A stretch of 64,000 bases of DNA from a virus: the IMG/VR virus record IMGVR_UViG_3300049218_000083, positions 69,861-133,860 of that record, one strand, 5' to 3'. Position numbers and translations under genes: made by a program. This document shows positions 23,036 through 50,293 of the stretch, one piece after another. The notes under the pieces are model-generated. The model made no database searches and was not told the DNA's origin. It saw only the letters and a list, made by a program, of their open reading frames with translations. The first letter of the stretch is position 1. Each line of letters opens with the position of its first letter.

Positions 23036-23320
23036 AGTGGCAGCTTATGAGGAACCCGGAAAGCTGCCGAAACCTGGTGAGAAATTACGCTGCTAGGCGG
23101 AATTCCTCAGATGCATTTTCAGTTGCATTTATACTGTTTTGCTTCATTTAGATGGTCGAACCACCAAGACGATAGCTTGTCTGTTGCCTTTACTTTTATC
23201 TCTTCCCGTCGAAAACTATTTCGCCCCCGAAGGTCGCCTAGCAGGGCGATAGTGGTGGAGGCGTCGGTTTCGCAACCGAGTCCGCAAAGCATTATAGCAA
23301 AGGAATTACAACATTCTGTT
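23036..23320 (-). ncRNA. ssrA: Circularly permuted (two-piece) tmRNA
   Basis: T-arm plus CGCCTCC-A-CCA (ends 23253), 24-nt spacer hairpin, then GGGGGCG..TTCGAC (G1=23228); G3-U70; tag ATENASEEFRLAA* at 23126-23085 after ATAAAT; P2 pairing; 3' hairpin GGCAGCTT/AAGCTGCC. Confidence 0.92.
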
Positions 23321-23908
23321 CATTTTATTTAGAGATTCATATTCGGTTCTATAGAACTCTCTTCTTTCAATTTTATTTAGCCCCTCATCAAGATTTGTCA
23401 AAAGTCCACCATGAGCAACCAACCCAAATATGTCAATTAACTTTGATTCATAGGATAATGCGTCAAGTTCGGAAATGTCAGTTATAAGTTTTACAACTTT
23501 TACTTCTTCACCAAAAGCCTCAATTTTTAATTTTATTTTTCTATGGGTCTCATTTCTATTTAATTCGTAACATCTATTACCCATACCCTTTCCAATGTAA
23601 AATGGCATATGTGTCATACCAAGAGTTGCGCCAAATGTAGTTTGCCCAGCTCTACCAATAGCAATTTTTTTAGTTGTATCTAAATGAGCATAAACATAAT
23701 ATTCTTTATTCGGATCTAATTCCAAATTCGAATACACAGATTTTATATCTGTATCATAAATTTTTCTACAATTATCAATTATTTGTCTAACCTTTTCGTT
23801 TTTTGATGGTTTATTTGATATTTGGGCAAGTCGACCCTTGACCTTACCGTAGTGTTCAAGTAACTTGACTGGGTCATCCCAGTCAAGTATAAATGTCTTT
23901 TCGTTCAT
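23306..23908 (-). CDS. GIY-YIG (LEM3-like) endonuclease, very AT-rich
   Basis: YYVYAHLD..PFYIGKGMGNR..ALSYESKLIDIFG..LTN; 3' end overlaps tmRNA 5' end. Confidence 0.78.
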   Translation of the reverse strand: MNEKTFILDWDDPVKLLEHYGKVKGRLAQISNKPSKNEKVRQIIDNCRKIYDTDIKSVYSNLELDPNKEYYVYAHLDTTKKIAIGRAGQTTFGATLGMTHMPFYIGKGMGNRCYELNRNETHRKIKLKIEAFGEEVKVVKLITDISELDALSYESKLIDIFGLVAHGGLLTNLDEGLNKIERREFYRTEYESLNKMNRML

Positions 23909-25144: not shown

Positions 25145-25221
25145 TGGCGCGCGAGGCGGGCATCGAACCCGCAACCTTCAGTTTTAGAGACTGCGCTCTA
25201 GCCAAGTTGAGCTACACGCGC
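25145..25221 (-). tRNA. Amber suppressor tRNA (anticodon CUA), Trp-like body
   Basis: Loop CTCTAAA; TTCGA T-loop; G73; encoded CCA. Confidence 0.88.
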
Positions 25222-40219: not shown

Positions 40220-40467
40220 CACTATCCCTATAGCCAGGTTTCTGTCTGTGTTGAGCCTATCCCAACACTCATCCATCATTCGCCTCAGGCTTTCGCCTGG
40301 TCACCAATTGTGACTGCCGCAACCCGACCTCATAGGGTGAAGCTTCCCTCGGTCTGTTAGCGTTGCTGGCCACGTTGCTAGTGCTAACGACTTTCGTCTC
40401 CTAACAGCTTCGAGCCAGTCCTGAACTTCCTCTAGGGTTTCCGCCCCAGCGATGGATCGGGATAGTG
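40220..40467 (-). ncRNA. rnpB: RNase P RNA, compact form
   Basis: P1 CACTATCCC/GGGATAGTG; CR-I GAGGAAGTTCAGG; CR-V ACAGAAACCTGGCT; P4 AG(U)UCAGG:CCUGGCU; P2 ATCCATCG/TGATGGAT; P19 GTGTTGGG/CTCAACAC. Confidence 0.88.
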
Positions 40468-42512: not shown

Positions 42513-43100
42513 CTAGTGCTTATTATACGCTGGATTCTTCCAGACTCGGCTGTTCTTAGGAATCGTTGCAAGCAAGTAGTCCATTTGATCAGCCAGCACT
42601 TTCCGGTTCTTCAACAGCAACTTCTCCTGAAGAGATGGTGCGTATGGAACGTAAAGAAGATGCATTCCTGCTTCCTCTGGAGTCCTGTCAGCCTTACCAT
42701 GGTTGCATGACTTACATGCAGTTACCGTGTTTGTCCAGAAGTGCCTTCCACCACGAGACTTTGGGTGCACGTGGTCGATGGTCAAGTGGTGATCCTTGAA
42801 CTGGATTCCACAGTAAGCGCAAAGATGTGCGTCACGAGCGTACAGAATGTCACGCTCTGCGTACACGGTTTCACGAGTGTAGAAATCGTTGCCGAATACA
42901 GGACCAGTAACCATGATGATGCTTGACACTGTGACGACAGAAACATCGCCGTCGCCGTTCTTTCCGCCTGTATAGGTCTTGATTGGGGAACCAAGATCAC
43001 ACACGACTTTGTCACGAGCGTAGTAGCAACATCCAGTTTCTATGTCAGTCCAGTCACGTGGGTTGCCAGATTTGTCAACAATCAATACATCGAGAGACAT
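42513..43100 (-). CDS. HNH endonuclease (McrA-like)
   Basis: RDAHLCAYCG..TIDHVHPKSRGG..WTNTVTACKSCN. Confidence 0.9.
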   Translation of the reverse strand: MSLDVLIVDKSGNPRDWTDIETGCCYYARDKVVCDLGSPIKTYTGGKNGDGDVSVVTVSSIIMVTGPVFGNDFYTRETVYAERDILYARDAHLCAYCGIQFKDHHLTIDHVHPKSRGGRHFWTNTVTACKSCNHGKADRTPEEAGMHLLYVPYAPSLQEKLLLKNRKVLADQMDYLLATIPKNSRVWKNPAYNKH

Positions 43101-45019: not shown

Positions 45020-45299
45020 ATTCTTTGTTCTGAAATTGCGCGTCCTGGTTCTAATCATGTGACAGTTAGAACAACGTATAACACATTTTTGCAATTTCGA
45101 CTTTAATCTTTTTTAGGCTGGAATACATCATGGAGCCAACCGTCTTGACTTTGGTTGTTTCATTGACATGATCAAATTCTAGCGCATGTGCATTGGCTTT
45201 GTAACCGCAGTCAACGCATCCTTTCATTCGCTTGTACCGACCAATGATTGCTCTGGTACGTGCGGCTCTAATTTTACTTACGCTTGGATTGGTGCCCAT
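45020..45299 (-). pseudogene. Frameshifted HNH endonuclease
   Basis: CVDCG..LEFDH..EIAK, then CVIRCSNCH in another frame after an A5 run near 45088. Confidence 0.7.
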
Positions 45300-45310
45300 G
45301 GGAGTATAGC

Positions 45311-45385
45311 TGGTGTTCCTAGAGGGAATCGAACCCTCGTCGAGATCTTGAGAGGATCTCATCCTGGCCGCTAGAAGATAGGAAC
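45311..45385 (-). tRNA. tRNA-Glu(CTC)
   Basis: Loop CTCTCAA. Confidence 0.9.
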
Positions 45386-45969: not shown

Positions 45970-46046
45970 TGGTAGCGAGTGGCAGGATTCGAACCTGCGT
46001 TCTTCAGCTTATGAGACTGACGAGATGGCCTCTTCTCCACACCGCA
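45970..46046 (-). tRNA. tRNA-Met(CAT), initiator-like 1:72 mismatch
   Basis: Loop CTCATAA; T1:T72; lacks the three G-C anticodon pairs. Confidence 0.8.
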
Positions 46047-46054
46047 TAATCGTG

Positions 46055-46375
46055 ATAGTGTTTGTGTTAGATTTTCGAGAAGTTGTCAAGCTTCTATCTT
46101 TCCCAGCACCTCTAGTTGTTCAGGTTCACTTGACTCCGCAGGATGGCCGTCCTGCCTCAACATCAAGGAGAGTCTTTCACTCTCAGCACCGTCGCCTTCT
46201 GACTTTATGTGTCTACCGACTGTGCAGCGATCCCAGGCTGTTTCCATATCTGACCTGGTACTTTCTACCCTTACTCTAAATGCCGTCTACTCAAATATTG
46301 CGTATGGACTTTCGCAACTGCCTTTCCGCCGAAGGACGCGTCTTATCAGCCACAAAAACCCAACACAAACACTAC
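46055..46375 (-). ncRNA. ~320-nt structured ncRNA candidate
   Basis: 23-bp closing helix whose four non-WC pairs are all G-U on the minus strand; several internal hairpins; no ORF. Confidence 0.7.
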
Positions 46376-46383
46376 AAACAAAC

Positions 46384-46458
46384 TGGTGGTGATACTGAGA
46401 ATCGAACTCAGGTTAATGGCTTATGAGACCACTGTCTTTGCCGCTGGACGATATCACC
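46384..46458 (-). tRNA. tRNA-Met/Ile2(CAT)
   Basis: Loop CTCATAA. Confidence 0.87.
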
Positions 46459-47790: not shown

Positions 47791-47865
47791 TGGAGCTCCC
47801 ACTCAGAATCGAACTGAGTTCTCAGGATTACAAAACCAGCGCATCGCCACGTATGCTTTGGGAGC
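47791..47865 (-). tRNA. tRNA-Thr(TGT)
   Basis: Loop TTTGTAA. Confidence 0.85.
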
Positions 47866-48538: not shown

Positions 48539-48613
48539 TGGCGGGATGCGAGGGATTCGAACCCCCATAACTAGTTTTGGAGTCTAGAGTCCTAGCCATT
48601 GGACGAGCAACCC
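48539..48613 (-). tRNA. tRNA-Trp(CCA)
   Basis: Loop CTCCAAA; G73. Confidence 0.83.
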
Positions 48614-48942
48614 AATTTTGCTTTACCTCTTTTCTTCAGATGAACATGGCCTTTCTGAAAGAGGTTGACTTTACGAGCAGCGCGAAGGTTGCAACGCAAA
48701 TGTGAAAATGATATGTTGTTCATATCCCAGAACAACTCCGTCGGTGTCGCAGTATCTTGCCAAGCAATTTTATGCTCTAAGCTCAACTGACCGAACTTGA
48801 TTTTCTCACCACAATGAAAGCACACATCGAAACCTGCTTTCTGCGCGAGATCGAATATAACCATGTTCCATAACTTTCTAGAAGCTGCATGAAAGCTCAT
48901 ACCGAGCTGCGCAGATTTCTTCTTGAAAGTGCTGGTTCCCAT
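48592..48942 (-). CDS. HNH endonuclease in tRNA array
   Basis: CFHCGE..LSLEHKIAW..NNISFSHLRCN; overlaps tRNA-Trp 5' end. Confidence 0.75.
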   Translation of the reverse strand: MGTSTFKKKSAQLGMSFHAASRKLWNMVIFDLAQKAGFDVCFHCGEKIKFGQLSLEHKIAWQDTATPTELFWDMNNISFSHLRCNLRAARKVNLFQKGHVHLKKRGKAKLGCSSNG

Positions 48943-48960: not shown

Positions 48961-49034
48961 TGGTGGGATTGATGGGAGTTAAACCACGTGACCTCTCACC
49001 GTTAAGTGAGCGCTCTACACTGAGCTACAACCCC
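48961..49034 (-). tRNA. Degenerate tRNA-Val-like (AAC?)
   Basis: 6-nt loop TTAACG; irregular T-arm. Confidence 0.5.
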
Positions 49035-49234: not shown

Positions 49235-49314
49235 ATGGGATAGAATTGGCAGAGTCGTCTGGTAATCGGCGCGACCCGATACCCTGGCTTGCAACCAGAC
49301 GACTCTACCATTTT

Positions 49315-49399: not shown

Positions 49400-49760
49400 C
49401 CTTTCTTTTATGCTGTGTATTTTGGTTAAGAAAACGATACAGCACTGCGTAGTGTACGCATACCAGAATCAGGTGGCGAAGGCAGCCAAGACAAGACAAA
49501 AACATTGCTGGTTTGATGGGATCCAGCGCCCAATAGCAAATGGGTCCTGCTTGCGGCAAGACCCTTAATCTTGTTCCAGCGGTTCGTGTTTACGAGTAAC
49601 CGCGTGCTGGGTCCGGTGAGAACGTCACCGAAAGTTGCGTGGGAGAATCCGGGAAGCATTCTTCCTAACAGCTAGAATTAGCTGACAGGTACTTCATGCG
49701 GTGCTTCTACCACCCCAAATCATCAGCGCGGATTTCTCCGCGAGTAGAACAATCATGAGT
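49400..49760 (-). ncRNA. ~360-nt structured ncRNA candidate at head of tRNA array
   Basis: At least 6 hairpins plus long-range pairing 49702-49714 with 49472-49484; no credible ORF. Confidence 0.6.
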
Positions 49761-49824: not shown

Positions 49825-50075
49825 CAAGTTCCTGAAATTAAACAGGATTTAGTTTCTAGGATCTTTCTACCCTTAAATGCACCAGCTTTCATGTTACACT
49901 TGAAGTGGGAGAACGCTATGTTGTTCAAAATCCCAGAACAATTCAGGATTTCTGCGCCATGGAATCTTCTGTTCACATTGGAAACACACGTCTTTTCCAG
50001 TCTGTTTTACCAGCATGAACAGTATCATCTTTCTCAGTTTAGCCTGAGCCTTCGACATAGACATGCCAAGATAGA
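49825..50075 (-). pseudogene. Degenerate HNH paralog of 48592-48942
   Basis: KLRKMILF..CFQCEQKI..ELFWD, then NNIAFSHFKCN in shifted frame; central EH motif deleted. Confidence 0.65.
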
Positions 50076-50104
50076 TTTCACATTTACGTTGTGGAACGAA
50101 TTGC

Positions 50105-50293
50105 TCAATTATCAAGAAACTCATCATCACCCAACAGGTCTTCAACTCGATGACGATTAAACCGTTCACGCTTGTAAGGCTCTCGAGATACAACCTCACC
50201 ACGCTCACGCACAGTTTTCTTCTTTCCACCGGATCGATTTTGTCGACCAGGCTTCTGATAATCGTCAGAGTTAGTGTTTCGTTGGTCCGCCAT
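50105..50293 (-). CDS. Hypothetical protein
   Basis: 62-aa ORF, start uncertain. Confidence 0.5.
   Translation of the reverse strand: MADQRNTNSDDYQKPGRQNRSGGKKKTVRERGEVVSREPYKRERFNRHRVEDLLGDDEFLDN

Follow-up and report, generated by a model that had tools for sequence, protein, structure and literature searches.

An expressed insert with a 23-bp end helix in the tRNA array of an uncultured phage: a possible small-ORF transcript

The window analysed here is a stretch of 64,000 nucleotides from an IMG/VR virus record of 166.7 kb, which has an estimated completeness of 98% and contains a T4-type major capsid gene. The DNA runs in which the stretch occurs are moss metagenomes. The minus strand carries about 35-40 tRNA genes in the interval from about 43.1 to 49.4 kb of the window, and at the gathering scores of Rfam 15 the only matches in the window are tRNAs and a tmRNA. 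Three of the tRNAs (45974-46045, 47794-47865 and 48964-49034, all on the minus strand) were matched by Rfam and missed by ARAGORN. The spacer between tRNA-Val and tRNA-Asn (49244-49313) is a hairpin with 20-nt arms, 90% complementary, and a 30-nt loop. The tmRNA is of the permuted, two-piece type and lies on the minus strand at 23085-23313, within 23036-23357 (RF04321, 100.7 bits); the cultured relative DLP6 likewise has a permuted tmRNA, there adjoining its tRNA array. A tRNA of the amber suppressor type (CTA anticodon), called tRNA-Pyl by ARAGORN, was found at 25145-25221 on the minus strand, and the annotation of DLP6 includes a tRNA-Sup-CTA too. Four small HNH homing-endonuclease-like ORFs (45066-45362, 48592-48942, 49894-50229 and 42513-43100, all on the minus strand) are located within the array or at its edge; the one at 45066-45362 has a 73%-identical copy on the JGI contig L127, with the same order of His, Glu, HNH and Ser. 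Small ORFs occur inside the tRNA arrays of the phage studied and of related phages.

The subject of this work is an inter-tRNA insert of 338 nt (46046-46383, minus strand). It extends from the encoded CCA of a tRNA-Met (CAT anticodon; 46384-46458, minus strand), which lies directly upstream, to the 5' end of the next tRNA, a CAT-anticodon tRNA with no encoded CCA (45974-46045), which lies directly downstream. The latter may serve in initiation or may be a tRNA-Ile of the lysidine type; it resembles the second Met-type tRNA of the relative G001. Positions in the RNA are counted downward from window position 46383 on the minus strand, position n corresponding to 46383-n+1. Two further short NCBI metagenome contigs contain the identical insert.

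The two ends of the insert can pair with each other over 23 contiguous base pairs. The 5' arm of this end helix (positions 9-31; 46353-46375, minus strand) is rich in G and U, the 3' arm (positions 307-329; 46055-46077, minus strand) is rich in A and C, and four of the pairs are G-U on the minus strand, the corresponding plus-strand positions being A-C mismatches. Against the 23 bp observed, 3000 dinucleotide shuffles gave an end-to-end helix of at most 17 bp, and 3000 shuffles confined to the two ends gave one of at most 19 bp; 20 bp or more was never obtained. No other long-range inverted repeat in the tRNA array is as good as the end helix, whose arm sequence has no further copy in the 166.7-kb genome. 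An earlier note on this DNA, made from the letters alone, had described the ends as a 23-bp helix with four non-Watson-Crick pairs, each a G-U pair on the minus strand, and had taken these as a sign of selection at the level of RNA; folding and the shuffles confirmed the helix, and the strand-specific G-U pairs fit such selection.

The insert is expressed. Eleven metatranscriptome runs from moss or plant samples, which carry six study codes and may represent fewer real campaigns, contain 43-80% of the sampled words of the insert. In the same runs the corresponding value for the 1201-nt surrounding stretch was 10-18%, equal in the absolute number of words, thus these runs hold the insert and essentially nothing else from there. 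Contigs were compared for four runs, the RNA runs X10, X11 and X17 and the DNA run X2. In X10 the contig matches 46065-46352 with 0 differences, then continues into Illumina adapter directly after 46352, indicating that many library inserts ended there and that the RNA has a fixed terminus at position 32/33, one or two bases beyond the last pair of the helix. The X11 contig, from a different study, covers 46134-46351 and stops at the same place as that of X10, and a contig of X17 matches 46155-46342 exactly. The RNA species defined by these contigs is ~287 nt long (about 290 nt), extends from position 32/33 to ~319 (46065-46352, minus strand), lacks the 5' arm of the end helix and retains the inner half of the 3' arm, to 46065. 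The contigs are strand-blind and the 3' end is not firm; the stop of the X10 contig at ~46065, together with the similar extent of the X17 variant contig described below, gives a weak hint that it is near position 319.

In X10 and X11 the depth was zero in all 30 bins of flanking sequence (tRNAs and spacers), while one contig of the DNA run X2 spans 46028-46439; gaps in the coverage of the RNA runs are evidence of absence only where X2 bridges them. Since X10 and X11 have no flank depth where X2 bridges the flanks, carry-over of DNA does not explain the signal. We estimate from the depths that the segment is more than 100-fold commoner in RNA than the share of phage DNA predicts for an average segment. 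No promoter-like site was found upstream of the RNA 5' end, so the end arises by processing, and an internal promoter as its origin was rejected. Because the RNA that accumulates lacks the 5' arm and has at least the inner half of its 3' counterpart, the helix exists transiently, as a processing structure, and the mature fold does not include it. The insert is transcribed, processed and accumulates. Three results of this work are firm: the end helix exists, the insert is expressed, and its RNA is trimmed at the base of the helix.

The prediction that this is an unassigned, discrete minus-strand RNA within the tRNA array was borne out: the RNA runs contain the insert, and it matches no Rfam family. 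A cmscan of the insert yielded only noise at E up to 10. The large ornate RNAs GOLLD (RF01998) and ROOL (RF03087), which had been brought up for comparison, gave no cmscan match, either in the window at the gathering score or in the region at E up to 10. Both occur near phage tRNA islands, and one example of GOLLD was first found downstream of a Met-tRNA (PMC12286853). The insert shares with them the location beside phage tRNA genes and, with that GOLLD, the position downstream of a Met-tRNA, but it is much smaller, its interior is thermodynamically unremarkable, and it has no covariation-supported ornate fold. RNase P RNA was rejected: no match was found at E up to 10 in the region, nor a match to RF00010 in the genome at E 0.001, and the motif order is wrong, the strings GAAAGUCC and GUAAGGGU..GAAAG being, as we take it, not collinear with the type A order and presumably lacking a P4 3' partner. 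A retron msr-msd RNA was rejected as well, there being no match to reverse transcriptase (RVT_1) in the 98%-complete genome. Judged by such comparisons, the insert belongs to no described RNA family.

Folding of the interior gave a less striking picture than the end helix. The whole insert had a folding z-score of -2.7 to -3.0 relative to shuffles, whereas the z-score was 0.04 for the interior alone (positions 31-307) and +0.54 for the trimmed form (positions 33-338); the score of the whole insert is almost entirely due to the end helix. The four internal hairpins named in the earlier note are all present. Three of them, GCAGGA/UCCUGC (46138-46155), GAGAGU/ACUCUC with a GAAAG loop (46168-46184) and CCAGGU/GCCUGG with a 14-nt loop (46233-46258), have pair probabilities of 0.97-0.99 in the minimum-energy fold, and the fourth, UUGCG/CGCAA with the loop AAAGUCCAUA (46298-46317), appears in the fold of the trimmed form. 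There is also a bulged hairpin at positions 159-198 (46186-46225), the 5' half of which is within the best-conserved block common to the insert and its variant. All five are on the minus strand. The idea of an ornate structured RNA was not supported, as the interior folds no better than shuffles and the variant does not support the fold. Two other RNA candidates of the same phage, at 49400-49760 and 40220-40467 (minus strand), had z-scores of -3.57 and -4.07.

The hairpin at 46233-46258, whose loop contains an ATG to which we return below, also carries a string that had been noticed for its resemblance to domain IV of the signal recognition particle (SRP) 4.5S RNA. The string, at 46236-46259 on the minus strand, is real and unique: the window has a single occurrence of it, where 0 would be expected by chance, and the insert and E. 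coli ffs share, in the same order, the 11-nt run UACCAGGUCAG, then GGAA, then CAGCC. The resemblance failed the tests of covariance model and architecture. Neither the 511-nt region nor the whole genome contains a match to the bacterial small SRP RNA (RF00169, gathering score 40 bits) at E up to 10, in a search whose control was positive in 13 of 14 genomes. SRP domain IV has a GNRA tetraloop on a short stem, a symmetric loop, an asymmetric loop with an unpaired ACCA, and sits at the tip of a long helix. Alignment and folding showed that the 3' side of the SRP-like element is 4 nt short of E. coli ffs, which prevents formation of both the tetraloop stem and the symmetric loop; ACCA, unpaired in 4.5S RNA, is partly paired in the insert, and there is no long helix 5. 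In the expressed X17 variant CAGCC is replaced by CGGCU, so that the motif is not kept; the phage encodes no Ffh M domain (SRP_SPB); and a motif scan of IMG/VR found no copy of the string in a phage tRNA array. That the hairpin imitates 4.5S domain IV and binds host Ffh, making the insert an SRP RNA mimic, is in our opinion very improbable, despite the ordered similarity to ffs.

Relatives of the insert proved to be scarce. By blastn no homolog was found among 50,697 phage records. The capsid protein led to 74 IMG/VR contigs, and BLAST together with R1, a single-sequence covariance model made from the insert (155-nt core), detected no homolog in 45 capsid-derived IMG/VR records, DLP6, T4 and four contigs to which the neighbouring HNH protein had led. 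The closest long relative, G001 (76% capsid identity, 39 tRNA matches), has a different gene order and no counterpart of the insert, and none was found in the relative G006. Scans for sequence patterns in IMG/VR, in JGI metagenomes and in GTDB genomes gave chance matches in coding sequences only. An antisense frame of 123 residues, used as a bait for spurious ORF calls on homologous RNAs, had no match in the protein collection. Of the neighbouring proteins, one of 350 amino acids had no relative in IMG/VR and one of 108 amino acids had none in the protein collection. The only true relative that these homology searches turned up is a 272-nt RNA contig of X17; the insert is accordingly expressed in at least two versions but confined to a narrow lineage. 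Another RNA contig of X17 (46383-46420) contains the 3' part of the tRNA-Met in nearly identical form, and the 145 nt that come next do not resemble the insert; a related phage thus seems to carry a different cargo after the same tRNA.

The X17 variant is 85% identical to the insert over positions 107-209, and its flanks are homologous and more diverged: the upstream flank is 70% identical without indels, the downstream flank has indels. The conserved part is a core at positions 89-209 with perfect blocks of 12 and 17 nt, UUUGAGUAGACG and UGGGAUCGCUGCACAGU, surrounded by an indel-rich periphery.

In view of the HNH ORFs in the array, the insert might be the remnant of a decayed mobile insert without function, its inverted ends having by chance made a nuclease-resistant processing intermediate. 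Four small homing-endonuclease ORFs in the same array, the absence of the insert from the matching place in relatives (where the gene order differs), its single copy, and an interior without a thermodynamic signal are all compatible with such a by-product. Nevertheless we consider it unlikely, since another sample has an expressed variant in which some blocks are perfectly conserved, the four mismatches of the helix are all G-U on the transcribed strand, no frame shows homology to an endonuclease or another protein, and no target-site duplication flanks the arms. Two related candidates were rejected. A MITE-like element would not be expected in a single copy, and the flanking sequences GTTTGTTT and CACGATTAT form no direct repeat; a decayed protein gene was discarded because no PHROG or Pfam match was obtained in any frame.

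A stronger rival is suggested by phage T4. It has been known for about fifty years that T4-type phages produce stable non-tRNA RNAs from their tRNA clusters; we know of no function established for them by anybody. In the T4 annotation rnaC (species 1, 139 nt) and rnaD (species 2, 119 nt) are in the tRNA cluster, beside the homing endonuclease gene segB. Like the insert, they are non-tRNA RNAs within or at the end of a T4-type tRNA cluster with a homing-endonuclease gene, and after co-transcription and processing they build up as stable RNAs. They differ in that they are less than half the size of the insert, that rnaC has a tRNA-like T-arm, which is absent from the insert, and that neither has a 23-bp end helix, whereas the insert has the end helix and a 53-codon ORF. 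R1 gave at most 5.4 bits in the T4 tRNA region, and the folds differ; the likeness is one of kind, not of descent.

The insert could accordingly be a non-coding stable RNA, a lineage-restricted counterpart of rnaC and rnaD excised in a similar way, whose ORF is a chance frame and which would work at the RNA level, e.g. as a ligand of a defence nuclease or of a host or phage factor of translation or RNA processing. We see this as a substantial possibility and place it second among the explanations. It would agree well with the selective accumulation of the insert relative to the other operon spacers and its fixed 5' end (accumulation above 100-fold is more typical of stable non-coding RNAs), with the strand-specific G-U pairs, which point to selection on RNA, with the conserved core in an indel-rich periphery, and with the annotation of two stable RNAs in the same kind of place in T4; the phage also has a tmRNA. 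What speaks against it is that the interior is no more stable than shuffles and that no Rfam family matches. Moreover, no homolog was found in G001, DLP6 or T4. A bolder version, in which the ~290-nt species represents a new class of stable regulatory phage RNA whose conserved core and SRP-like hairpin divert a host factor of translation, targeting or RNA processing, seems to us quite unlikely; if true, such an RNA would complement the tRNA set and the tmRNA of the phage.

If the insert is a message, its coding part would be the central ORF. This sense ORF consists of 53 codons and a stop (46086-46247, minus strand), starts with the ATG at RNA position 137, is a gene call in the source records, and would encode an acidic orphan peptide (P0007). 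Of the 15 differences between the insert and the X17 variant, the six that are listed are substitutions (positions 145, 148, 166, 172, 175 and 177). Five of these six fall in third codon positions of the ORF and four are synonymous; with 5 of 14 third positions changed versus 1 of 27 others, the hypergeometric p is ~0.013, a value that rests on six sites and one variant. The length difference just past position 209 is net 3 nt, which keeps the frame. When the same six changes are compared with the predicted fold, three are in loops, two convert G-C to G-U, and one breaks a pair unless it is compensated elsewhere. That five of six are in loops or change G-C to G-U within predicted stems could be cited for a non-coding RNA, but the calculated probability of such a structure-neutral share is roughly 0.4, i.e. 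about chance, unlike that of the third-position bias. The only statistically notable comparative signal would thus favour a small coding region.

Other properties of the ORF argue against coding and are what one would expect of a chance frame in a non-coding RNA. We estimate that a sense ORF of this length is expected ~0.4 times per random 338-nt sequence. The frame of the variant reaches a stop ~9 codons past position 209 and has ~33 codons compared with 53, therefore the C-terminal half of the ORF is not conserved. Although the frame has the best codon-usage score of the three, the score is ambiguous: -0.002, where real in-frame windows score 0.31 +/- 0.19 and off-frame windows -0.25 +/- 0.16. 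The peptide is an orphan. A phmmer search of 1.84 billion representatives returned only the peptide itself and a repeat artefact, the match of P0008 being rejected as a single weak match repeated in an adhesin, and the ESM Atlas provided no lead. AlphaFold2 predicts a nearly structureless, disordered chain with one 4-residue helix and little else (pLDDT 62, pTM 0.15). The ribosome-binding signal is weak, as the sole Shine-Dalgarno-like element, an AGG, is hidden in a stem, that of the hairpin with the ATG in its loop.

Weighing these observations, we tentatively favour, without granting it an even chance, the explanation that the insert is a small-ORF transcript freed from the tRNA operon by a processing stem. 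According to this explanation the insert would be a lineage-specific module of the long tRNA operon of the phage, and its strand, its position and the missing promoter suggest that it is transcribed together with the tRNAs. As the tRNAs on either side mature, both ends of the insert would become free, the G/U-rich 5' end and the A/C-rich 3' end would pair, and the 23-bp helix would serve as the processing stem, at which host RNase III and/or RNase E probably cut. From established knowledge of operon processing we infer the most plausible division of labour: RNase III would cut the 23-bp stem and RNase E the U-rich 5' arm, and RNase P together with 3' trimming would act at the tRNA borders. The 5' arm is removed exactly at the helix base, as the adapter junction shows, and the ~290-nt species then accumulates, as is seen in the RNA runs, far above its operon neighbours. 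The payload of the excised RNA would most likely be a compact message for the 53-residue acidic peptide, with the ATG at 46247. With this ATG in a hairpin loop, weak or regulated translation would be expected. That the peptide acts against the host or its defences is only a guess, suggested by the example of other small acidic phage proteins.

It is useful to compare the proposed stem with known ones. In bacterial rRNA operons and in the early transcripts of phage T7 processing stems are substrates of RNase III. The similarity is that the flanks of the unit pair over about two helical turns and that the unit is cut there from a polycistronic precursor. However, the ends of the RNA, at the helix base on the 5' side (position 32/33) and about the middle of the arm on the 3' side (~319), do not correspond to a simple 2-nt stagger and so do not fit one staggered cut by RNase III. 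The 98%-complete genome of the phage encodes no RNase III either; the RNase III proposed here is that of the host.

In comparison with the stable RNAs of T4-type phages, the insert is an unrelated and larger case, from an uncultured soil or moss phage and with direct evidence of expression in the environment and an evident signal for processing; the new feature is the helix of two turns that brackets the unit. Should the RNA be non-coding, the few phage RNAs known from the vicinity of tRNA islands gain a new family; should it be a message, tRNA operons can deliver transcripts for small proteins by means of a dedicated excision stem. Either way, the 23-bp stem offers a testable handle on the release of non-tRNA cargo from phage tRNA operons. 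Among the tRNA arrays of relatives, which were examined for inserts bracketed by stems, no recurring design emerged. In G006 a 25-nt inverted repeat, 84% complementary (L107, 3643-3667 and 4308-4332), brackets 640 nt containing the tRNAs for Arg and His.
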